A stretch of DNA of 32,000 nucleotides from the NCBI RefSeq assembly GCF_000007185.1, contig NC_003551.1, forward strand, positions 810,001-842,000, in the 5' to 3' direction. The DNA comes from Methanopyrus kandleri AV19. Its GTDB lineage: Archaea > JAADCQ01 > Methanopyri > Methanopyrales > Methanopyraceae. Both the position numbers and the translations under genes were made by a program. The stretch's first letter is position 1. Each line of letters begins with the position of its first letter. The notes beneath the pieces were generated by a model, which was not told where the DNA came from, did not search any database, and worked only from the letters and a program-made list of their open reading frames with translations. Below, piece after piece: positions 1,293 through 20,148 of the stretch.

Positions 1293-2264
1293 TTACCCGA
1301 CTTCGAGGATCTCTTCGACGATCTCCGCGACGGCGCTTCGCCCCCTTCTTATGAGCCACTCTCCACGTGGCTTGCGGGCCATCTGGACGGCGTCCTCCGC
1401 ACCGGAGCTTTCGCTTAAGTACATTACCGGTACGCCGGACTCTTCGGCGATCCAATGGCTCAGGTGTTTGGGATGCACTTCCGACACCTTCACGGCCTTC
1501 TTCGCCACCACACAGGCTTCTATCGTGACCCCGAACCCTCCGGCGAACACTACCGTATCGGCCAGCATCATTACTCCGGGTAAATCCACGAATTCCCGAA
1601 CGCACTCGAAGCCCTCTGGAGGGCTTACCCTGAACGGCACCACCACAGGATCGTGGTCCTCGAGATCGGAGAGCAGTCGTCGGGCTCCTTCCTCCGTGAT
1701 GTCGCCACCCAAACATACCAGTACGCGACCTTCGTACTCTTCCGGTACGGGTCCCGGAATACGACCGGATAGGTGGCGGTCCGCTAGGTACTGGGCCAAC
1801 GGTGCCCCGGAAACCACCTTAGTCTCAACTCCCACCCGTCGTTTGAGTACCTCCGCCCACTTCTCCGAGAACGGCACCAGCACACGCGTCGCCCATCGGA
1901 CGGCTTCCACGGGGTTGTACACGTCCATCTCTAAGTGTACGGAGGGGATCCCTAGCATCCGAGATGCTATCAGAGACTTCCTGGCGTCCCCGGTGTTACC
2001 GGATGAAAGTACCACGGAAGCACGCTCCGACGCCAAAGCCCGTACCGTCCGTATTAAGTCAACGGAGAACCCTACGTACCCAAGTAATCCTTGTCTCCGT
2101 CGGGGCTTTCCTAACTGCTTCGTCTCGATACCTTCCCATTTCAGTATCTCGACTCCACGCCCGTGTCCGTATACTGTTACTTCCCACCCTTCCTCCAGGA
2201 GTCGCTCCCACACCGGGAGGAGGTTCTTGGCCGGGGACGGTTCTACGAGACTGAAAGCTTTCAT
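1293..2264 (-). CDS. MurG-like GT-B fold glycosyltransferase
   Basis: The ORF track gives 1293..2312. I prefer ATG 2264 (MKAFSLV...), which lies 4 nt past the hisB stop and is preceded by GGTGA. The protein is collinear with MurG-type transferases (GWEVTVYG..GIE; VVLSSGNTG..LGIPSVHLE; RVLVCLGG; ADTVVFAGGFGVTIEA). The N-terminal glycine-rich loop of MurG is absent. Confidence 0.55.
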   Translation of the reverse strand: MKAFSLVEPSPAKNLLPVWERLLEEGWEVTVYGHGRGVEILKWEGIETKQLGKPRRRQGLLGYVGFSVDLIRTVRALASERASVVLSSGNTGDARKSLIASRMLGIPSVHLEMDVYNPVEAVRWATRVLVPFSEKWAEVLKRRVGVETKVVSGAPLAQYLADRHLSGRIPGPVPEEYEGRVLVCLGGDITEEGARRLLSDLEDHDPVVVPFRVSPPEGFECVREFVDLPGVMMLADTVVFAGGFGVTIEACVVAKKAVKVSEVHPKHLSHWIAEESGVPVMYLSESSGAEDAVQMARKPRGEWLIRRGRSAVAEIVEEILEVG

Positions 2265-2268
2265 CCGC

Positions 2269-2865
2269 TCACCCGCGTCGGAGCGTTCCCTTAGTGGATG
2301 GCACTCCGTCACCGACGATTTCCTTCGCTGCGCCGAGTGCGCGGCCTACGGCCTTAAACATGGCTTCGATGGCGTGATGGTCGTTGTCCCACCACCGTAC
2401 CACCACATGCATGGTTACGCCGGCGTGGTCGCAGAAGCTTTTCCAGAAGTGCGAGACGTTCTCCGTGGATAATGGAGGAGAACCGATTCTATTGCGTCGG
2501 GGTCGGTACCCCTTTAAGACGAAGTAAGGCCTTCCGGAGATATCTACAGCACATTCTACTAGCGCTTCATCCATAGGTACCAGTGCCCATGCGATCCGTC
2601 GGATACCCTCGCGATCTCCGAGTGCTTCGTTCAAGGCTTTACCCAGGCATATACCGACGTCCTCGACGGTGTGATGATCGTCGACCTCTAGGTCGCCTCG
2701 GGCTTTGATCTCAACATCTATACGTCCGTGAAAGGCGAACTGGTGCAGGAGGTGGTCGAAAAACGGAAGACCGGTGTCGACCTTAGCGCGACCGGATCCG
2801 TCTAGGTTCACGCTCACCTCAACTTCCGTTTCCTTCGTCGTACGCTTGACATCCGCCGTCCGCAC
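2269..2865 (-). CDS. hisB: Imidazoleglycerol-phosphate dehydratase
   Basis: Hallmark HisB blocks are present: KRTTKETEVEVSVNLDGSG, TGLPFFDHLLHQFAFHG, GDLEVDDHHTVEDVGICLG, HVVVRWWDNDHHAIEAMFKAVGRAL. The ORF is open to 2967. GTG 2865 is preceded by GGGGTGA at 5 nt and gives a typical 198-aa protein starting MRTADVKRTTKET. GTG 2874 or the upstream ATGs remain possible. Confidence 0.92.
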   Translation of the reverse strand: MRTADVKRTTKETEVEVSVNLDGSGRAKVDTGLPFFDHLLHQFAFHGRIDVEIKARGDLEVDDHHTVEDVGICLGKALNEALGDREGIRRIAWALVPMDEALVECAVDISGRPYFVLKGYRPRRNRIGSPPLSTENVSHFWKSFCDHAGVTMHVVVRWWDNDHHAIEAMFKAVGRALGAAKEIVGDGVPSTKGTLRRG

Positions 2866-2901
2866 CGAGTTCACCCCATCGCAAACGTCGGTTGGTGGCG
2901 G

Positions 2902-2907
2902 TAAATA
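2902..2907 (+). promoter_or_regulatory. Candidate TATA-like element (TAAATA) for the OB-fold gene
   Basis: TAAATA lies 32-37 nt upstream of ATG 2939, in the roughly 70-nt spacer that exists if hisB starts at 2865/2874. This would give a very short leader. Confidence 0.25.
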
Positions 2908-2938
2908 GCACGGACGTGCGGCCCGATCTAGGGTCCCC

Positions 2939-3283
2939 ATGGAGAGGACGGTTTCCATCGTCTGCATCGTCCTAGGTGCCGCGTTACTTTGGATGTCTTC
3001 CGGTGCTTCTCATCAGGTGGTCGGGGCGAGAGAGTTGCAGTCGACCGATGACGGAACATTAGTAAGGGTCAAAGGCGAGGTGCTGCAGGTGAACGTAGTG
3101 AGCGACGGCGCGGAAGTTGTCGTTCTAGACGCGGGGGACGGGACGGTGACCGTGTTCCTCAGTAGGGAAGCCGCAAGTACTTTGGCCCCGACTCCTGGGG
3201 AATCGCTGGAAGTGGTAGGAAGAGTTGAAGAGTATCGAGGGCGGAAGGAAGTCCGTGTGGATTCGCCGGTACGTGCCCGCTAA
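2939..3283 (+). CDS. Membrane-anchored OB-fold (tRNA_anti-like) protein
   Basis: 114 aa. It has an N-terminal hydrophobic anchor (VSIVCIVLGAALLWM). The rest follows the OB-fold pattern LVRVKGEVLQVNVVSDGAEVVVLDAGDGTVTVFL...GESLEVVGRVEEYRGRKEVRV. Confidence 0.65.
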   Translation: MERTVSIVCIVLGAALLWMSSGASHQVVGARELQSTDDGTLVRVKGEVLQVNVVSDGAEVVVLDAGDGTVTVFLSREAASTLAPTPGESLEVVGRVEEYRGRKEVRVDSPVRAR

Positions 3284-4070
3284 GGCTCTCATCGTCGTGA
3301 TCATCACGACGTTAACGGTCCCGTATTTCGTGTTCTACGGTAAGCCGCGCGGTCCCGGGTACCCTACGGAGCTGTACGGATACCGGATCGTACTGGAAGA
3401 TCCGGCGCTCGCGGTAGTGGACGTGGAACCCAGACGGACCCTGCTGTTCAGACACACGCTTACGGTGTCCGATGAAGGTTGGTCCGTACATCCTGTCTTC
3501 GATATACCTCCCCTGATATTCGTGCGCGCGGAGCGCATGGATACTCTTGAAACGGTTAAGAGGAACTTGTGGGCGGTTGTACTACAGGAGGGAGCTGGAC
3601 GGGTGTTCATGCCCGACGAGTTCGTTGAGGGTGGCGTTCCGGGACTCATCACAGGCATCGCCGGCCAGGCTTGGGCCTGGAAACATCTGAAATGGGCCAG
3701 AGAGTTCGGAGTTATTCACGGGCTACGTCGGTACGCTAAGGAGGTCGGACCCGAGCGCATTTCCACTGCCATCTTAGAGGAGTATAGGAGAGCACCGTGG
3801 CGGGCGATCCTAGATTTCTGTGACATGATGAAGAACAGTGACGTAGGGAGGTTCCTGCGCTCACGTGGGCTTTCCTTCCGGGATTTCCTCACCAGTAAAG
3901 ATCCGAAACTAGTAGCGGAGGTCCTAGTCGTGTTGGACCTGGGAAGGCTCGACGAGCGAGTAGTCGATGAAAGAATACGGTACGTGTTGGATGCGAGGGC
4001 TTACCCCATCCCCGAGTCGGAAGAAAAGATCGTGGATAAGGCGGCGCGTGAGCTGCTTCGTCATGGATGA
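3273..4070 (+). CDS. Hypothetical protein with N-terminal TM helix
   Basis: The ORF track gives 3225..4070, but its first ~59 nt overlap the OB-fold gene. GTG 3273 (or 3255) is more likely. The TM segment is ALIVVIITTLTVPYFVF. No family recognised. The 3' end overlaps the tfb stop by 10 nt (convergent). Confidence 0.55.
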   Translation: MPAKALIVVIITTLTVPYFVFYGKPRGPGYPTELYGYRIVLEDPALAVVDVEPRRTLLFRHTLTVSDEGWSVHPVFDIPPLIFVRAERMDTLETVKRNLWAVVLQEGAGRVFMPDEFVEGGVPGLITGIAGQAWAWKHLKWAREFGVIHGLRRYAKEVGPERISTAILEEYRRAPWRAILDFCDMMKNSDVGRFLRSRGLSFRDFLTSKDPKLVAEVLVVLDLGRLDERVVDERIRYVLDARAYPIPESEEKIVDKAARELLRHG

Positions 4071-4984
4071 AGCTCGATCCCGAGGGCTTCACAGATCTCC
4101 TTGTACCGGTTTCGGATCGTAACTTCCGTAACTCGAGCAACCTCCGCAATCTCCTTCTGAGTACGTCTCTCTCCCTCGAGGATGGACGCGATGTATAATG
4201 CGGCCGCGGCTACGCCGGCTGGCCCCTTACCCACGGTGATGCCTTTCTCCTTGGCCTTTTCGATGATCTCTTGAGCCTTAGCCTGGACGTTTTCGGAGAC
4301 CCCTAACTTCGAGGCGAACCTGGGTAGGTGATCGGAGGGTTCAGTCGGTTTCTGCTTCAGGTTCAGCCGACGTTGCAGTACTCGATAAGCCCGGAGTATC
4401 TCGTTCTCATCCGAGACTCCGAGCGCCTCCGCGATCTCGCGGGCAGTCCGGGGCACGCGAGCTTCTTTACACGCGGCGAATACCGCCGCTCCCAAAACGC
4501 TCTCTATGCCGCGGCCACGCACGATCCCTTCTTTGTACGCCTTCCTGTATATCGAGGCGGCGAGTTCCCTGACCGACTCGGGTAACTGAAGCTTGGACGC
4601 GAGATTCTCCAGCTCCAGGAACGCCTGGAAAAAGTTCCTTTCCCGACTTCCCGATACTTTGATACGTGCATCCCAGGTGCGAATGCGCCGCATCCGGGGG
4701 TTCTTTTTCCCACCGGAGTCGCGCAACTCCCGGTCTATAATCGTGGAGATGCCCTTATCCGGCAACCTCAGCTTGACGGGCTCTCCAGTTCGAGACCTCC
4801 GTTGTCTCTGGTCCGGGTTAAAGTGCCGCCACTCAGGGCCGGGATCTATCACCGGGTCTTCCGTGACCAGTCCGCAATTCGCGCAGACGTACTCACCCCG
4901 CTCCTCATCGAAAACAATCTCTGCGGAACCACACGCCGGACATTCCTCCGTGAACTTCCCGGTGTTCCTTTCAGAAGCAGCCAT
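4061..4984 (-). CDS. tfb: Transcription initiation factor IIB (TFB)
   Basis: 307 aa. It has the N-terminal Zn ribbon CPACGS...CANCG and the PGPEWRHF linker. Two cyclin-like repeats follow, ending in the HTH QKEIAEVARVTEVTIRNRY. Confidence 0.96.
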   Translation of the reverse strand: MAASERNTGKFTEECPACGSAEIVFDEERGEYVCANCGLVTEDPVIDPGPEWRHFNPDQRQRRSRTGEPVKLRLPDKGISTIIDRELRDSGGKKNPRMRRIRTWDARIKVSGSRERNFFQAFLELENLASKLQLPESVRELAASIYRKAYKEGIVRGRGIESVLGAAVFAACKEARVPRTAREIAEALGVSDENEILRAYRVLQRRLNLKQKPTEPSDHLPRFASKLGVSENVQAKAQEIIEKAKEKGITVGKGPAGVAAAALYIASILEGERRTQKEIAEVARVTEVTIRNRYKEICEALGIELHP

Positions 4985-4999
4985 TCTCGATACACCCCA

Positions 5000-5284
5000 T
5001 CATCTGCGGCGGCGGGGCCGACCCCGCCGCCTGCGAGGAGGACGCCTTCGCCGTCGTCTGGGTGGTATGAAGAGCTCCTTCCCGACGAACCTCTCGAGGT
5101 GGTGGCGGGACTTATCTCGGATGGCCACGTAGGGCTTATCCGCGGGCCCAAAAACGTCCACAATAACACCTACACGCTCACGACGGCGAGTTACAACGGG
5201 CGCCCCTAACGGCGGTACGTGATCGGCCCTTGCGATCAGATTTCCCCGGGGCGTAACGTGGAGGGCGCGCCCCAGCCTGCGCAT
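5000..5284 (-). CDS. gar1: H/ACA RNP component Gar1
   Basis: MRRLGRALHVTPRGNLIAR...VGVIVDVFGPADKPYVAIRDK is collinear with archaeal Gar1. It ends in a basic C-terminal tail. It lies 15 nt upstream of tfb, a commonly conserved gar1-tfb pairing. Confidence 0.88.
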   Translation of the reverse strand: MRRLGRALHVTPRGNLIARADHVPPLGAPVVTRRRERVGVIVDVFGPADKPYVAIRDKSRHHLERFVGKELFIPPRRRRRRPPRRRRGRPRRRR

Positions 5285-5361: not shown

Positions 5362-5835
5362 TCACCTGTTGGCACATTCCGAGCACACATCGAGTTTCTT
5401 GTTGCTCTTGAACTTCTTCCCACACACCTTACACGTACACTCGTACAGCTTTGCTCGCTTACCCTCGAGCTCGGCTTCCCTCTTGATCCGGCATGTCCTC
5501 TCCAGCTCTCGACGGAGGTAGAACCAGGTATCACCGAACACATCCCTGCCACGCATTACTACTCTCCTGGCGACCTCGAGTCCATCGCCGTCTCCATGCA
5601 TAGCACGTACCATGGCACTCAAGAACTGGCGCTCTCGGTACCTGTAAAGGTCTATAGCGTCGTTGGGGCAGACGCGCACGCACTCATCGCAAGCGTCGCA
5701 GGCCTCCAGGTCCGCGATGACCACCTCTTCGCCCTTGATTTTCAACACTCCTCTCTCACAAACTTCCACACAGAGCGCACAGGAGGCTCCCTCACATCTG
5801 GTCCGGTCGATCTCGATCCGACGGACTACCTGCAC
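5362..5835 (-). CDS. 2x[4Fe-4S] ferredoxin-like domain fused to a helical region and C-terminal Zn ribbon
   Basis: The ORF is open to 5943. GTG 5835 is preceded by GGGGGAG and starts right before the Fe-S domain. Cysteine motifs are CEGASCALCVEVC and CDACDECVRVCP. The C-terminal ribbon is CTCKVCG...CSEC. Confidence 0.65.
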   Translation of the reverse strand: MQVVRRIEIDRTRCEGASCALCVEVCERGVLKIKGEEVVIADLEACDACDECVRVCPNDAIDLYRYRERQFLSAMVRAMHGDGDGLEVARRVVMRGRDVFGDTWFYLRRELERTCRIKREAELEGKRAKLYECTCKVCGKKFKSNKKLDVCSECANR

Positions 5836-5861
5836 CGAGGCTCCCCCGGGGAGGATCGGAG

Positions 5862-6254
5862 TTGGACGTACGGGTTCGAGAGGATGACGGCGACGTGATC
5901 TTAGAGTTCTATGCGGAGGATGGCAAGTCGGTCGAAGTTTCAACGCGTGCGTTCTACACGGCAGTATACCTGAACCGTCAGGACCCTATCGAGAAAACGA
6001 AGGAGTTGTTCATTAAGGTCTCGAGGATCCTCGGCGAGGAGCAACCCGAGATCTCGGTGCGGCGAGAGGAGGACCCTTCGGGTCACATCCTGAACCCGTG
6101 GGTGGCTAACTCGGAGGGTGCTGACGACGTATGGCCGCTGGTGTTCGAGGTGAGATCGAAGGACGGAGTGGCACGGGAGTTCACGTTACTTGTTCCCGTG
6201 AGGTTAGAGCGTCGACGACTCAGGGAGATACTTTTAAAAGTTTTCAGATCTTGA
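5862..6254 (+). CDS. Hypothetical protein
   Basis: 130 aa with a TTG start 6 nt after GGAGGA. Composition looks protein-like. No family recognised. Confidence 0.5.
   Translation: MDVRVREDDGDVILEFYAEDGKSVEVSTRAFYTAVYLNRQDPIEKTKELFIKVSRILGEEQPEISVRREEDPSGHILNPWVANSEGADDVWPLVFEVRSKDGVAREFTLLVPVRLERRRLREILLKVFRS
6232..6239 (+). promoter_or_regulatory. Candidate TATA box (TTTTAAAA) for the HTH-PhoU operon
   Basis: TTTTAAAA lies inside the 3' end of the preceding ORF, ~46-53 nt upstream of TTG 6285. A strong SD (GGAGGTGAT) sits at 6270-6278. Confidence 0.35.
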
Positions 6255-6284
6255 TCGTCGGGTTTCCACGGAGGTGATATCATC

Positions 6285-7220
6285 TTGTACCCGAGAGGAA
6301 GGGAGGCTACCCTCGCGGCCGTCTTGCATACCATACTGCGGGACCGTCCCTCGACACAGAAAGAGATCGCAGAGAAGGTTGGCGTTTCCCGACGATACGT
6401 GACGGAACTCCTAAGGCCGCTCATCGAGGAGGGCGCCGTTCGAAGGACGTATACCGTCGACATGTCGAAGCTCAGACGCCATTTCCCCGAATTATTCGAG
6501 GAGCTTGGAAACTTCCTGTACGAAGATGTGGAGATGCACTTAGAGGGCGTCCGACCTTACTTCAAACGCATGACCGACCTGACCCTCGAGCAGATCGAGA
6601 CGGCTCTTATCGCGGTCGAGGAGAACCCGGAACAGGCCCCCAAAGTTATCGAGATGGACGAGGAAGTGAACCGGTTGGACGAGGAAATACGTCTCTACGT
6701 CCGGACGCTTCCAGTCCTCCATCCTTGTGAAGAAGCCGGCAAGGTGGCGACCCTACTGCTGGAGATCTCGCACTGCATCGAGCGGATAGGGGACTACGCG
6801 TGCAACATCGCGGAGGTGGCGGAAACACTCGGGACACTGTCCGACCTGCAATGCTGGAGGGAAGTGCGGGAGGCCGCCCTGGAAGCCCGTAGCATGGTGA
6901 AAACCGCCTACAGCATTTTCCTCGGTCGGGTGAAGGAGGAGGACCTGCGCCATGAAGCCGAAAAGGTGTACTGCGCCGAAGATCGTGTCCACAAAAACAT
7001 AATTAGGGCGTGTGAGAAGGCCGTCGAGGAAACGAAAGAGTTTCCTGAAAAGGCCGACCGACTGTTCGGTCTCTCTCGGATCACGAAGGACATCGAGCGT
7101 ATCGCGGATAAGGCTGTAGACGTTGTAGATTTCACGCGCGAGCTCGTAGAGGGTAGGCCCCGGGATCTCACACCTGAGCAGGAGATGAGGAGCACCCTAC
7201 CCGCTGACGGCACTCATTAG
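6285..7220 (+). CDS. Winged-HTH fused to PhoU-like (two-repeat) domain; putative regulator
   Basis: The N-terminal HTH is STQKEIAEKVGVSRRYVTELLRPLIEEGAV. Two PhoU-type repeats end in CIERIGDYACNIAE and DIERIADKAVDV. Confidence 0.75.
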   Translation: MYPRGREATLAAVLHTILRDRPSTQKEIAEKVGVSRRYVTELLRPLIEEGAVRRTYTVDMSKLRRHFPELFEELGNFLYEDVEMHLEGVRPYFKRMTDLTLEQIETALIAVEENPEQAPKVIEMDEEVNRLDEEIRLYVRTLPVLHPCEEAGKVATLLLEISHCIERIGDYACNIAEVAETLGTLSDLQCWREVREAALEARSMVKTAYSIFLGRVKEEDLRHEAEKVYCAEDRVHKNIIRACEKAVEETKEFPEKADRLFGLSRITKDIERIADKAVDVVDFTRELVEGRPRDLTPEQEMRSTLPADGTH

Positions 7221-7231
7221 GGGGGTGCCGG

Positions 7232-7948
7232 TTGTACTACATCGGGCTCGGTGGCTTCGGCTGTCGGTTCTCCACTCACGCCTCAAACGCAGGCCTCGAG
7301 GTGATCCTCTGCGCGGGATCCAGAGGAGACCTACTGCGGGTGTCGGAAGGCGAGAAAATCGAGGTGGCCAGCGGTATCGGGTTCAGTCGGGACTGGCGTA
7401 AGGCTTCCGAGGAGCTGCAAGAGCAAGCGGAGACTATCCGTGAGACGTTAGAAAGGGTGGGCGCCGAGGAACCCACGGTCCTCGCTTTCGGTCTCGGTGG
7501 AGCCGTCGGATACGCTTTAGCGCAGCAGATTCTGAAGGAGCCTCCGGTGCCTTTCATCGTACTGACCACGGTTCCGGGAGAATCGGAGGATCCTCAGGTG
7601 CGTCGCAACGCTGCTGAACAGGTGAAGAGCGTCCTGGGAGTGTCCATCAAGCTTCCCGTCCTCTGGGTGGACAACGCGTTAGGTGGGTATGAACGGGTTA
7701 ACAGGGTACTCGAGAGGACACTCCTCGACCTCCGAGACTTCCTGGGCGTGCCCGTGGAGGAGCTCCCGAACTTGGCCGGTAACTACGCGTTGTCACCTTC
7801 GATATCCGGAGAGAAGGTGACCGGGGACGTCGTCAAGACATCGGCGGATGAGGTCAGGAAGCTGGTGAAGAGTAGGGAGCCAGAGGAACACGTGGTTCGA
7901 CGCGAGCGCCGTGGGCCTGACCCGGAGTCGCTGAGAGAATTGTTCTAA
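7232..7948 (+). CDS. Truncated, degenerate FtsZ/tubulin-like GTPase-domain protein
   Basis: 238 aa with a TTG start after GGGGGGTG. It is collinear with the FtsZ N-terminal domain. T1: YYIGLGGFGCRF versus the GxGGxGxN pattern. T4: VLAFGLGGAVGYALA versus the GLGGGTGTG pattern. T5 region: VLTTVPGESEDPQVRRNAAEQV versus TxPFxxEGxxRxxNAxxG. T6: LWVDNAL versus the vIPNxxL pattern. There is no FtsZ C-terminal domain or T7 loop, only a charged ~70-aa tail. Confidence 0.6.
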   Translation: MYYIGLGGFGCRFSTHASNAGLEVILCAGSRGDLLRVSEGEKIEVASGIGFSRDWRKASEELQEQAETIRETLERVGAEEPTVLAFGLGGAVGYALAQQILKEPPVPFIVLTTVPGESEDPQVRRNAAEQVKSVLGVSIKLPVLWVDNALGGYERVNRVLERTLLDLRDFLGVPVEELPNLAGNYALSPSISGEKVTGDVVKTSADEVRKLVKSREPEEHVVRRERRGPDPESLRELF

Positions 7949-7960
7949 GGGGGAACCGCT

Positions 7961-8197
7961 ATGGCGAGGAAAGCTAGAGTGACGCTCACACTCTCCGAGG
8001 ACGCCTTGGCCCGGGTCCTAGCGACCAAAGACGCCCTCGAGGGAGACAGTATCTCGGCTACCGTCGGTAAGTTGGTGAAGTTCGGGTTCGCGTACCTCAG
8101 GGAGAAGTTCCCCGAACTGTTCGAGGGTATAAATCTCGAGGAGTACCGTGAGAAGGCGCGTGAGCGCTGGTTCGATTCCGGATCCTCTCGGTCATAG
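7961..8197 (+). CDS. Ribbon-helix-helix (CopG/Arc/MetJ-like) DNA-binding protein
   Basis: 78 aa with an ATG 6 nt after AGGGGGA. ARVTLTLSEDALARVLATKDALEGDSISATVGKLVKFGFAYL fits the strand-helix-loop-helix RHH pattern. Confidence 0.6.
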   Translation: MARKARVTLTLSEDALARVLATKDALEGDSISATVGKLVKFGFAYLREKFPELFEGINLEEYREKARERWFDSGSSRS

Positions 8198-8205
8198 TTT
8201 TTAAA
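8198..8205 (+). promoter_or_regulatory. Candidate TATA box (TTTTTAAA) for argJ
   Basis: TTTTTAAA lies 32-39 nt upstream of TTG 8237. There is no obvious SD, which is compatible with a very short leader. Confidence 0.35.
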
Positions 8206-8236
8206 CTCGGGTCAGGGGCCCCTCCAGGGAACCGCG

Positions 8237-9400
8237 TTGCGGGCACCTGAAGGCTTCCTTCTAGGTGGCATCAAACGCGAAGGTATAGGAGTCGGGTTGA
8301 TCTTCTCGGAGCGTCGATGTGCCGTGGCGGGCACTTTCACCGAGAACACCCTCCGCGCCGCTCCGGTGGAGCACTCCGAGGAAGTGTGCGATCGAGGTGT
8401 CGCCCGCGGAGTGATAGTGAACAGTGGTCACGCCAACGCGATGACGGGTGAGGAGGGGTATCAGGACGTACTGCGCACGGCGGAAGCGATCGCTGAGCTA
8501 ATGGGGGCTCCGGAGGACGAGATAGTGGTGTGTTCTACGGGCGTGATCGGTGAGCGTCCTCCTGTCGACAAGATCGTGAGGTACGCGCGCGAAGTTTGGG
8601 AGGATATAGGACCCACCGAACGGCACGTTCGGGAGTTTAGTCGGGCTATCATGACCACCGATACCGAGGAGAAAATAGCTTTGTACGAAGGCGATGGCTG
8701 GTCACTTCTCGGAATCGCGAAGGGTGCGGGTATGATACATCCGAACATGTCCACTATGCTCGCGTTCTTGCTCACCGATGTAGGAGCGAAACCGAAAGAG
8801 CTTCAGATGTGGCTACGCGATGTCGTGAACGACACGTTCAACATGATAACGGTAGATGGGGATGAAAGCACTAACGATTCCGTGGTGCTGCTGGCGAACG
8901 GCAGCTCGAACCTCAAAGTCGGCAGCGATGTTACCATCACGGAGTTCCAGCGCGCCCTGGAAGAGGTCTGTACGGAGCTCGCTGAGAAGATCGTACGAGA
9001 CGGTGAAGGAGCGACGAAGCTCATGATAGTGTGTGTACACGGTGCGAGTAATGAAGTAGAAGCTCGGCGTGCGGCCCGTGCGATAGCGTCCTCAAACCTG
9101 GTGAAGGCGGCGCTGTTCGGCGAGAATCCGAACTGGGGCCGGATCGGAGCCGCTGTCGGGGCCGCACGCGTCGATGTTGATCCGGACGAGTTACGGATAG
9201 CTTTCCGCAGCTCAGAGGGCGAGATAGTGACCTACGAAGGAGGTCCAGTGGACTTCGACGAAGAGAAGGCTAAGCGCGTTCTCTCCGCGAGTGAAGTCGA
9301 GATTGTGGTGGACTTAGGCGTAGGTGACGCGTCCGCCCGCGCGTGGGGGTGCGACTTAACGTACGAGTACGTACGGATCAACGCGGAGTACAGGACTTGA
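8237..9400 (+). CDS. argJ: Bifunctional glutamate N-acetyltransferase / amino-acid acetyltransferase (ornithine acetyltransferase)
   Basis: 387 aa. It begins with the APEGFLLGGIKREG N-terminus. The self-cleavage region is GMIHPNMSTMLAFLLTD. Further blocks are ITVDGDESTNDS, NPNWGRI and a C-terminal YVRINAEYRT. Confidence 0.95.
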   Translation: MRAPEGFLLGGIKREGIGVGLIFSERRCAVAGTFTENTLRAAPVEHSEEVCDRGVARGVIVNSGHANAMTGEEGYQDVLRTAEAIAELMGAPEDEIVVCSTGVIGERPPVDKIVRYAREVWEDIGPTERHVREFSRAIMTTDTEEKIALYEGDGWSLLGIAKGAGMIHPNMSTMLAFLLTDVGAKPKELQMWLRDVVNDTFNMITVDGDESTNDSVVLLANGSSNLKVGSDVTITEFQRALEEVCTELAEKIVRDGEGATKLMIVCVHGASNEVEARRAARAIASSNLVKAALFGENPNWGRIGAAVGAARVDVDPDELRIAFRSSEGEIVTYEGGPVDFDEEKAKRVLSASEVEIVVDLGVGDASARAWGCDLTYEYVRINAEYRT

Positions 9401-18238: not shown

Positions 18239-18677
18239 CGAAGCTGAGGTCCGCAGGGAGTTAACACCCTTCGAAGCTTACCGGAAGATATGCAAGAAAC
18301 TGGACGCGTCTGTTGTCGAGCCACCCGAAGATGTAGGACATCCCGTCGATCCTGAGGTGGGATATCGGGTCCTGGAACTCTTGGAGAGCCTGTGGGACTC
18401 GGGGTTCAGGCGCTTGGGTGTCTTGGGGACCGTCGGGTGCGGTGCGCCCCTCCACGACATCGAGGTCGGGAATCCGGTCGGGTGGACTAGCGTTCGGGTC
18501 TCGAACCCAGGCTCAGATCTCGACCTCGTGGCCCCCCACCGAGATTACTTATTGGAGATGTCACTGTCTGGTTTCGAAACTGTAAAGCGTTTCGCGGACC
18601 GTGTGATAATGTCTCCCGCGGCATTCACTGGGTTTACAGTTCCCAGAGTCGAAGTCCGGTTACCCAGGGGGTGTTAA
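18120..18677 (+). CDS. Candidate MdcG/CitX-like phosphoribosyl-dephospho-CoA transferase (nucleotidyltransferase-fold motif)
   Basis: The frame is open from 18042, and the start is uncertain (GTG 18120, GTG 18141 or TTG 18153). GC3 in 18120-18238 favours this frame over the CitG tail. The motif [12 protein letters not shown]...[11 protein letters not shown] resembles the G[ST]..G...SDLDL signature I recall for MdcG and polymerase-beta-type transferases. Confidence 0.45.
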
Positions 18678-18678
18678 C

Positions 18679-20148
18679 TTGACGGAAAAACTTGACAGTG
18701 TGTTACCCAAAACCTCACAAGGTTCGAACTTGAACGATCTGAAGAACCTCCGCGATGCGCTGGATAAGTTTTCCGAGATCGAGCCGGATCTGGACGTCGA
18801 GTCGCTGAAAGCTACGCTGGACGATCTGATCACGCTCATGGAAGAAACAGGCGTGAAAGACGTGAGGGATCTCTGCGAGAAGTTTCTGGACTTCAAGCGT
18901 GAAAAGGAGCGGTTGGAAGAGCTCCTCAAGGAGTACTTCAAGCGGTTGGAGGAGTTGGAGCGGAAGCTGCGAGCCCACGAGGAGAAGCTTCGCATCGAGG
19001 CCCGTCGTCGTAAGACTCTGGAGAAGGAGTTGGAGATGGAGCGCGACGAGAAGGCCGAGCTGCGGGAGGAGCTACGGCGTAAAGAAGTCATGATCGAGAA
19101 GCTCCGTAGCGACCTGCAGCGGATGAAGAAGCCCCCGCTCATCGTGGGTACCGTCGAAGAGATCCTCGACGACGGTCGCGTGATAGTGAAGAGTTCCACG
19201 GGTCCGAAGTTCGTCTCGAACGTGAGCCCGACCGTAGACAGAAACGAGCTCGAGCCGGGTGCTAACGTGGCCCTCAACCAGCAGAGCATGGCCGTGGTGG
19301 ACGTGTTACCGTCGGAGAAAGACTCACGTGTACTGGCGATGGAGGTGGACGAGTCACCCGATGTGTCGTACGACGATATCGGCGGTCTGGACGAGCAGAT
19401 CCGCGAGATCCGAGAAGTCGTGGAGAAGCCGCTCAAGGAGCCCGAGCTGTTCGAGAAGGTCGGTGTCGAACCGCCGAAGGGTGTCCTACTGTACGGTCCA
19501 CCGGGCACCGGTAAGACCCTGCTGGCCAAAGCCGTGGCGAACCACGCCGACGCCACCTTCATCCGGCTCGCCGCGCCGGAATTGGTCCAGAAGTTCATCG
19601 GCGAAGGTGCTAGACTGGTGCGGGAGCTGTTCGAACTCGCACGCGAGAAGGCTCCGAGTATTATCTTCATCGACGAGATCGACGCGATCGGTGCCCGGCG
19701 AATGCGGGACGCGACGAGCGGAGACCGCGAGGTCCAGCGCACGCTCACCCAGCTGCTCGCGGAGATGGACGGCTTCGATCCGCTCGACGACATCAAGGTC
19801 ATCGCGGCCACGAACCGGAAGGACATCCTGGACCCGGCCTTGCTGCGACCGGGTCGGTTCGACAGGCACATTAAGATCCCGCTACCGGACGAGGAGGGCC
19901 GGTACGAGATCTTCAAGATCCACACGCGCGACATGAACTTGGCCGAGGACGTCGATCTCCAGAAGCTGGCGAAGATCACCGAGGGTGCCTCAGGTGCGGA
20001 CATCAAGGCCATATGTACCGAGGCTGGTATGATGGCTATACGCGAGGACCGTGACATTGTCACCATGGATGACTTCCTGAAGGCCGTGGACAGGGTCATG
20101 GGTAAGAAGGAAGAAGAGAGCGGAGAGTTCAAGCGCGCGTACCACTGA
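18679..20148 (+). CDS. pan: Proteasome-activating nucleotidase (AAA+ ATPase)
   Basis: The coiled-coil N-terminus is followed by the OB region [28 protein letters not shown]. Walker A is GPPGTGKT and Walker B is IIFIDEIDA, followed by the second region of homology [22 protein letters not shown] 18679 gives 489 aa. ATG 18838 (MEETGVKD...) would give a more typical 436 aa. Confidence 0.95.

Follow-up and report, generated by a model that had tools for sequence, protein, structure and literature searches.

A domain-reduced tubulin-like protein of Methanopyrus kandleri and its ribbon-helix-helix partner

We analyzed a 32,000-nucleotide stretch of the Methanopyrus kandleri AV19 genome (NC_003551.1, positions 810,001 to 842,000 of the forward strand, hereafter the window) and found that its gene at 7232..7948 (+) encodes a tubulin-like protein with an almost absent activation domain, here called the mini-tubulin, followed directly by a gene for a ribbon-helix-helix (RHH) DNA-binding protein. 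The same pairing recurs in a small family of related loci, the genes are under purifying selection, and arrays of short DNA repeats stand upstream of the pair in two sub-lineages. Our favored reading, which we put forward tentatively, is that mini-tubulin and RHH protein together make up a partition-like module for positioning DNA that has become fixed in the chromosome of Methanopyrus. A resemblance of the protein to FtsZ, reported in a preliminary description of the locus made from sequence alone, is real and was already known, the exact protein carrying the name FtsZ in databases; new are the minimal tubulin branch and its place in a partition-like two-gene module. Searching the literature, we found no paper on this protein, on a domain-reduced tubulin family or on a tubulin-RHH pairing of this kind.

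A reduced and altered tubulin GTPase domain

The mini-tubulin gene begins with TTG and encodes 238 residues, with a GTPase-domain core (residues 1–171), a remnant subdomain (175–213) and a charged tail (204–238). The product is identical to M. kandleri AAM02076.1 (WP_011019231.1, UniProt Q8TX16), which GenBank and UniProt label "FtsZ GTPase involved in cell division". A Shine-Dalgarno-like run, GGGGGGTG (7220..7227, +), can be read from the sequence 4 nt ahead of the start codon. It shares bases with the stop codon of the preceding gene, suggesting that the two genes are co-transcribed. The open reading frame (ORF) is intact in about ten Methanopyrus strains, and a homologue of 65% identity, P0002, is encoded on a metagenomic contig of 204 kb (L001) from a more divergent Methanopyrus-like lineage, where synteny is kept. 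Between these two copies the ratio of nonsynonymous to synonymous substitution rates (dN/dS) is 0.22, against 0.11–0.13 for the flanking ArgJ and PhoU genes, in a comparison of the window with its L001 homologues in which dS is near saturation. Conservation and low dN/dS together establish the ORF as a real gene under purifying selection and not a decaying fragment.

Single-sequence searches gave little indication of what the protein is. The Pfam Tubulin model scored it at 13.3 bits (E 0.1), below the cutoff of 33; an NCBIfam scan matched no FtsZ model, and NCBIfam and PDB sequence searches returned noise only. A profile built from three Methanopyrus sequences and run through an exhaustive hmmsearch of 1.84 billion representative proteins produced 16 matches (E 1e-6 to 1e-3) beyond the Methanopyrus cluster. 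Four of the first ten clear the Pfam Tubulin threshold (57–74 bits), two of these four with TubZ C-terminal domains as well, and the other six are small proteins with no significant Pfam match. Another match, P0018, is a canonical FtsZ by reading of its sequence. When a ten-member alignment of the family was compared with eight TubZ-like proteins by hhalign, the two aligned over 175 columns (residues 1–183) at 97.8% probability and E 1.1e-12, improving to 98.4% and 8e-15 with a relaxed alignment. A further hhalign comparison gave E 1.4e-5 for the family against TubZ-like proteins and E 1.3e-3, at 18% probability, against canonical FtsZ.

Structure searches agree. The preliminary description had named placement in a non-tubulin, Rossmann-like family, or a predicted fold lacking the GTPase-domain topology of FtsZ, as the outcome that would overturn its assignment; the searches came out for tubulin. 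We ran Foldseek against the PDB with two AlphaFold2 models (predicted local distance difference test scores, pLDDT, 75.7 and 78.7; predicted template modeling scores 0.79 and 0.81), and for both models the top 50 matches were all TubZ, PhuZ, CetZ, FtsZ or tubulin (E 5e-8 to 2e-5). The best were c-st TubZ, phiKZ TubZ, PhuZ and Bacillus cereus TubZ (E 5e-8 to 1e-6), at sequence identities of only 12–23% among the PDB matches. In a library of viral structures (BFVD) there were ten significant matches, all to phage tubulins or FtsZ-like proteins and separated by a 30-fold gap in E-value from the unrelated Rossmann-like folds that come next. Profile search, hhalign and structure search thus settle the tubulin/FtsZ-like nature of the protein: the homology to the GTPase domain, read from sequence profiles and predicted models, is solid from strand S1 to helix H7 and far beyond chance. 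Collinearity with the FtsZ GTPase domain from T1 to H7, claimed before any database had been searched, is borne out by the profile search and hhalign, as is the suggestion of an uncharacterized branch of the superfamily; the protein is a truncated and motif-degenerate member.

The ORF and the motif strings quoted in the preliminary description all lie where it had placed them, and its assignments of loops T1, T3, T4, T5 and T6 agree with the hhalign alignment to TubZ-like proteins. The glycine-rich T1 equivalent GLGGFGCRF (7244..7270, +; residues 5–13) aligns with GLGQAGGNL of TubZ-like proteins, in the register GLGGFGCR against GLGQAGGN, and the asparagine of T1 is replaced by arginine or lysine across the family. 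The T3 equivalent GIGFSRDW (7373..7396, +; residues 48–55) has the family consensus GSDTGAHRD, with G50, R53 and D54 invariant, and aligns as SGIGFSRD against GYDGAGAD. At T4 the signature is degenerate: GLGGAVGYA (7490..7516, +; residues 87–95) aligns as GLGGAVGY against GFGGGTGS, and the family, in which G87, G90, A91 and G93 are invariant, has G-x-x-G-A-[VT]-G in place of the canonical GGGTG[ST]G. The T5/H5 region TVPGESEDPQVRRNAAEQV (7568..7624, +; residues 113–131), with P115 nearly invariant and E117 invariant, aligns with LPxxxES of TubZ-like proteins (VPGESE against LPHEHE). Finally, T6, WVDNAL (residues 145–150), and helix H7, with the sequence YERVNRVLERTLLDL (together 7664..7744, +), resemble VDNSL...YYDRVNRVI of the TubZ-like protein P0003, with VDNAL aligned to VDNSL and YERVNRV of H7 resembling YDRVNRV. 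Methanopyrus retains both T6 and H7; elsewhere in the family T6 is not conserved.

Eighteen positions are invariant across family proteins that are only 21–30% identical, among them G7, G10, G50, R53, D54, G87, G90, A91, G93 and E117. Invariant residues within degenerate loops suggest that a ligand pocket, though altered, has been retained. The only signal toward a non-tubulin Rossmann-like family was a local, non-significant match (E 0.016) between the T4 strand-loop-helix of the family (vvvfGLgGAvGlAlAR) and GxxGxxG, a dinucleotide-binding motif found in NmrA-like Rossmann proteins. The NmrA unit is N-terminal, and the match falls at another place in the fold; the likeness is a possible hint of changed nucleotide specificity.

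Beyond H7 the protein departs from known tubulins. In place of a C-terminal activation domain of about 100–120 residues, made of a beta-sheet and helices, it has about 40 folded residues, predicted by the AlphaFold2 models as a helix (175–181), strands (183–187 and 200–203) and a second helix (205–213). Judging by these models, the activation domain has shrunk to a remnant of about 40 residues and was not cleanly deleted. An invariant N180-x-A182 motif (7769..7777, +) lies in the short helix after H7, and ISGE (7802..7813, +; residues 191–194), in a low-pLDDT loop at 189–196, is a candidate degenerate remnant of T7: the corresponding family segment, LDG[EKR], aligns at low confidence with the LDGED T7-type motif of TubZ-like proteins. 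The preliminary description had the whole C-terminal domain, T7 included, replaced by a charged tail. The tail (residues 204–238) is indeed charged, at about 50% of residues, but the description went too far in calling the domain and T7 missing, given the residues predicted to fold, the invariant N180 and A182 and the low-confidence T7-like segment. The tail itself (7841..7945, +) consists of a low-confidence charged linker and a C-terminal peptide, ...GPDPESLRELF, with a predicted terminal helix at 231–237. In other members it ends in DPW[DS][IL][FL] (for example DPWSLL), SPWDIF, DPLDFL or DVLDLL.

With neither a Pfam nor an NCBIfam threshold passed, T4 degenerate and the C-terminal domain a remnant, Q8TX16 is no orthologue of FtsZ; it failed all FtsZ-specific tests that we ran, and the database label is misleading. 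Its tail also has no GID motif, the SepF-binding motif at the C-terminus of archaeal FtsZ (PMC8178401).

A family of mini-tubulins paired with a ribbon-helix-helix gene

Six small proteins among the profile matches (230–254 residues) share the architecture of the query. Through contig look-ups and scans of sequence collections we assembled 11 distinct mini-tubulin loci: the window, L001, L002, L005, L006, L008, L009, L010, L013, L014 and L022. Three loci in reference genomes come from the metagenome-assembled genome (MAG) of a member of the Methanopyri and from a "Methanobacteriota" MAG, and the others are metagenomic, several from samples that also contain Methanopyrus-like contigs. One MAG holds more than one copy of the module. 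Mini-tubulins are a small, undescribed family, Methanopyri-related or metagenomic in origin.

The most informative feature of the locus, absent from the preliminary description, is the RHH gene directly downstream. At 7961..8197 (+), 12 nt past the mini-tubulin stop codon, it encodes a 78-residue protein with a C-terminal extension (AAM02077.1, F1SVK3, "Predicted DNA-binding protein"), which aligns throughout with the rest of its family and has a dN/dS of 0.04. A homologous RHH gene of 75–94 codons is the next gene, 12–69 nt downstream, at 10 of the 11 loci, although the mini-tubulins themselves are only 21–30% identical. Two RHH members pass Pfam thresholds (RHH_9, RHH_1, RHH_3), and the C-terminal extension is 35–45 residues long. 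A profile search with the RHH family returned 16 clusters, each with E ≤ 1e-15, and no further match up to E = 10; wherever we looked up a member on a long enough contig, its gene follows that of a mini-tubulin. As far as these searches reach, the RHH family is closed and occurs only with mini-tubulins.

The only locus lacking the RHH gene is the one represented by L009 and L015, where no RHH remnant was found and about 1 kb downstream holds no convincing ORF. Its tubulin tail ends ...EDWIKRIGV, without the usual terminal hydrophobic motif. A gene for tRNA-Val (5783-5859, -) and this mini-tubulin gene (5977-6729, +) are about 120 nt apart.

The tail of the mini-tubulin (window 7841-7945) resembles a motif in the RHH extension (8096-8125), with DPW[DS][IL][FL] in the one and DDW[DE]E in the other; the Methanopyrus versions are SLRELF and FPELFEG. 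By sequence likeness the two peptides may mimic a single docking site. Co-variation between tail motif and extension motif is imperfect (L002, L010).

Upstream repeats and genomic settings

Two sub-lineages carry repeat arrays directly upstream of the module. In one element, assembled as L005, L018 and L019, a non-coding gap of 227 nt contains 7.4 copies of an 11-nt unit with the consensus CCCGGGCCGAG. The array lies upstream of the mini-tubulin gene (L005 5907-5985, equivalent to L011 5845-5923, L018 5015-5093 and L019 9074-9152), abuts a TATA-like TTTTAATAT box and stops about 80 nt short of the start codon. Its period equals one helical turn, resembling parC. In the second sub-lineage, L022 (also L023), the locus spans 7.1 kb, and its seven ATGACAY sites all fall within 4827-5074, just before the mini-tubulin start at 5090; 0.68 would be expected, and none of 200 shuffles reached seven. 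The spacings of 11, 53, 56, 56, 54 and 11 nt are near-integral numbers of helical turns, one site is inverted, and the sites sit in a 279-nt, AT-richer intergenic region directly upstream of the mini-tubulin-RHH pair. We regard this array as a candidate centromere or operator array. The loci L002, L006, L008, L010 and L014, as far as each was examined, showed no comparable upstream array.

The genes around the module vary. The window and L001 have a gene for a helix-turn-helix (HTH) PhoU protein upstream and ArgJ downstream. In L010, from a Methanopyri MAG, a 23S rRNA gene (1418-4517, -) lies about 1.5 kb upstream of the module, and downstream come a 704-residue helicase-like ORF (7020-9134, +), which from its sequence we take to be Hel308/Ski2-like, and then a tRNA-Cys gene (9178-9253, -). 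L006 has a PCNA gene as neighbor, and MBL-fold or DUF1678 genes neighbor the module in L008, L014, L020 and L022, while L002 and L018, contigs of 28–30 kb, contain no gene with a significant Pfam or PHROGs match. Since the neighbors differ between most loci, the conserved unit is the two-gene module.

The L002/L003 and L018 contigs are syntenic and consist almost wholly of ORFans, among them genes for proteins of 749–1077 residues, with one weak glycosyltransferase match. Independent assemblies of contigs of this type come to similar totals of 28.4, 30.5, 29.1 and 28.5 kb, so that they could be complete small replicons or viruses of Methanopyri.

In M. kandleri the upstream gene, Q8TX17 (6285..7220, +), encodes a winged-HTH protein with a double PhoU domain and ends 11 nt before the mini-tubulin start. 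It adjoins a mini-tubulin only in the two Methanopyrus-type loci, the window and L001, and in no other locus of the family, and stands outside the conserved module. The Methanopyrus mini-tubulin is in this way flanked on both sides by genes for DNA-binding proteins, HTH-PhoU and RHH. Further upstream in the window, a 130-residue ORF (5862-6254, +) has no Pfam match but keeps its position in L001 (131 residues); it is divergent from a ferredoxin-like 4Fe-4S gene (5362-5943, -). Elsewhere in the window, two ORFs of about 490 residues, at 18660..20132 (-) and 18679..20148 (+), overlap almost fully on opposite strands. At most one of them is likely to be real, a typical shadow ORF of high-GC DNA.

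A proposed partition-like module and its alternatives

The known systems nearest to the mini-tubulins are TubZ and PhuZ, which act in type III plasmid partition (TubZRC) and in positioning the phage nucleus. They share the GTPase-domain fold and give the best structural and profile matches; like the mini-tubulin, they end in a tail that is flexible and acidic and are encoded beside a small DNA-binding protein, and iterated DNA repeats lie beside the operon, here in two sub-lineages. As in TubZRC, a gene for a tubulin-fold nucleoside triphosphatase (NTPase) homologue has a putative DNA-binding adaptor gene next to it (10/11 loci). In TubZ and PhuZ the flexible tails either recruit the adaptor, TubR, in its DNA-bound state or lock one subunit to another and stabilize the polymer (PMC3678025). 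The differences are considerable. The mini-tubulin has about 238 residues where TubZ and PhuZ have 300–480, its activation domain comes to about 40 residues, and its T4 reads G-x-x-G-A-[VT]-G in contrast to their GGG[ST]G[ST]G. The candidate adaptor is an RHH protein encoded downstream, whereas TubR of TubZRC is a winged-HTH protein encoded upstream, and the mini-tubulin family is archaeal (Methanopyri), partly chromosomal and, unlike TubZ, without Pfam TubZ_C matches.

In layout the closest parallel is ParMRC, the type II system of plasmid R1, with the same order of iterons, NTPase and RHH adaptor (ParR). The parC site of ParMRC carries 11-bp repeats, and the C-terminal peptide of ParR engages ParM. 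This likeness is architectural only, as ParM has an actin-like fold, in contrast to the tubulin-like fold here, and there is no sequence relationship. Among archaeal relatives, FtsZ1 and FtsZ2 belong to the same superfamily, and the cdrS-ftsZ2 pair places an RHH gene beside a tubulin homologue in a euryarchaeon (PMC7439475). In contrast to archaeal FtsZ, the mini-tubulin falls under the Pfam threshold, matches no NCBIfam FtsZ model and has neither an FtsZ_C domain nor a GID peptide; in cdrS-ftsZ2 the RHH gene lies upstream of a full-length FtsZ2, while here it lies downstream, encodes more than a bare RHH domain and has a partner that is not FtsZ2. The closest published "truncated" family is FtsZl1, described by Makarova and Koonin in 2010 (PMC2875224), which occurs in archaea too and has a highly diverged FtsZ-like GTPase domain whose elements beyond H5 and C-terminal domain are unrecognizable. 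FtsZl1 proteins differ in having about 1000 residues, with a coiled coil and a C-terminal domain made of helices, in keeping GGGTG(S/T)G, and in being encoded beside vWA, GTPase and OmpA genes (PMC2875224).

The iterons-NTPase-RHH layout of the members outside Methanopyrus mirrors ParMRC and for this reason favors a partition-like role; the varied flanking genes are what would be expected of an autonomous module. In such a module, a dimer of the RHH protein would bind the repeated DNA sites, and the mini-tubulin would self-assemble or switch state in a nucleotide-dependent manner by means of its retained top face, T7-like loop and tail. The tail, the C-terminal extension of the RHH protein or both would couple the two proteins, so that bound DNA is positioned or segregated. 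A module of this kind would combine a "type III" NTPase with an RHH adaptor in the style of types Ib and II. Our results show the fold and homology of the mini-tubulin, the conserved pairing of the genes, purifying selection and the iteron arrays of two sub-lineages; nucleotide binding, polymerization, contacts of the RHH protein with DNA and with the mini-tubulin, and segregation are inferred. A more specific version, in which the single-domain mini-tubulin forms nucleotide-dependent polymers, its T7-like loop and docking C-terminal peptide standing in for the lost activation domain, and moves DNA through the iteron-bound RHH adaptor, we consider rather unlikely.

Several observations weigh against a partition-like role. 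The activation domain, nearly absent here, makes up half of every known longitudinal interface between tubulin or FtsZ subunits; together with the degenerate T4 and the loss of T6 in most members, its reduction makes GTP binding and polymerization uncertain. Arrays of iterons occur in only two sub-lineages and could be autoregulatory operators, and neither the 32-kb Methanopyrus window nor L001 showed a comparable cluster. Neither IMG/VR, INPHARED phages, PLSDB plasmids nor PHROGs gave a match to the family, the extrachromosomal nature of the ORFan-rich contigs is a supposition, and the L010 copy is clearly chromosomal. In Methanopyrus, the module adjoins the PhoU-HTH gene amid housekeeping genes, unlike a plasmid partition cassette. 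This chromosomal setting, the apparent operon with HTH-PhoU and the lack of nearby iterons suggest that the module may have been domesticated in M. kandleri; for this organism a partition role is an extrapolation, and a regulatory role is quite possible.

A regulatory role is the core of the first alternative, an unlikely but credible one, in which the mini-tubulin is a non-polymerizing switch that depends on a nucleotide or other ligand and the RHH protein is its transcriptional output or an autoregulator. Through its degenerate tubulin domain the protein would bind a partner or sense a small molecule and modulate DNA binding by the RHH protein, and in Methanopyrus it would be integrated with HTH-PhoU in one operon. 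The missing activation domain is consistent with this, as is a T4 loop that is degenerate but family-invariant, suggesting an altered ligand pocket. The Methanopyrus operon holds two DNA-binding regulators and has no iterons nearby, and RHH proteins of the kind matched here (Pfam RHH_1, RHH_9, RHH_3) are typically repressors. However, helically phased arrays of seven to eight sites over 80–250 nt exceed what a simple operator needs, a conserved acidic tail that ends in a hydrophobic peptide is characteristic of the filament-forming TubZ, PhuZ and FtsZ, and we know of no tubulin-fold regulator that does not polymerize.

The preliminary description had suggested, as one option, that the protein might cap or regulate FtsZ or CetZ filaments, and the context that we examined lends this no support. 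In its fuller form, the mini-tubulin, with an intact top face and no bottom face, would cap or modulate filaments of the host FtsZ, and the RHH protein would be a CdrS-like transcription factor for division. The design is logical for an end-capper, and databases already name the protein FtsZ. Co-transcription of an RHH gene with a tubulin homologue is moreover a known and widespread archaeal arrangement for controlling division (PMC7439475). Yet the family lies nearer to TubZ-like proteins than to FtsZ in hhalign comparisons, and this distance and the low identities to PDB structures make it unlikely that surfaces for co-assembly were kept. The gene order is the reverse of cdrS-ftsZ2, the RHH protein has an extension of 35–45 residues and belongs to a closed family found only with mini-tubulins, the module occurs in differing contexts, partly on ORFan-only contigs, and the tail has no SepF-binding GID motif of archaeal FtsZ (PMC8178401). 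We judge filament capping improbable.

Quite improbable, in our estimate, is a toxin-antitoxin-like or other addiction or defense pair, in which an autorepressing RHH antitoxin would be matched with a mini-tubulin toxin, one that might poison the host FtsZ or another NTP-dependent process. A compact two-gene module that turns up in varied surroundings, and more than once in one MAG, would suit such a pair, and the RHH protein has a C-terminal extension as antitoxins do and is weakly similar to RelB-like antitoxins. These similarities score only 15–20 bits, however, far under the 50-bit cutoff, and PADLOC matched neither protein. A "toxin"-first order with a partner of 240 residues is atypical, synteny is stable and purifying selection strong between the two Methanopyrus-type loci, and the iteron arrays are larger than operators of toxin-antitoxin genes. 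Last, a decaying FtsZ or TubZ remnant without a function of its own, which truncation and eroded signature loops might suggest, is effectively refuted by an ORF that is intact both in multiple strains of Methanopyrus and in a relative at 65% identity, by the dN/dS of 0.22 (0.04 for the partner) and by ten other intact homologous loci with 18 invariant positions.

Whichever role proves right, the annotation of Q8TX16 as FtsZ, the cell-division protein, is wrong, and comparative studies should leave it out when they count FtsZ paralogues. To our knowledge, every characterized tubulin or FtsZ polymer needs both the GTPase and the activation domain for its longitudinal interface and for GTP hydrolysis. 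A conserved and selected family that keeps the GTPase domain and tail either puts a minimal cytomotive tubulin to the test or shows a non-polymer use of the fold. If the RHH protein and iterons are coupled to the mini-tubulin, the module would fill the empty cell of "tubulin NTPase with RHH adaptor" among the types of partition system and would bring tubulin-based DNA segregation to Archaea, a domain in which segregation is little understood. On the more specific, polymer-forming reading it would be the first such machine there, the likeness between tail and RHH extension would reflect a mimicry in the style of ParR and ParM that lets the adaptor bind filament ends, and in Methanopyrus the fixed module might aid the segregation or positioning of the chromosome.

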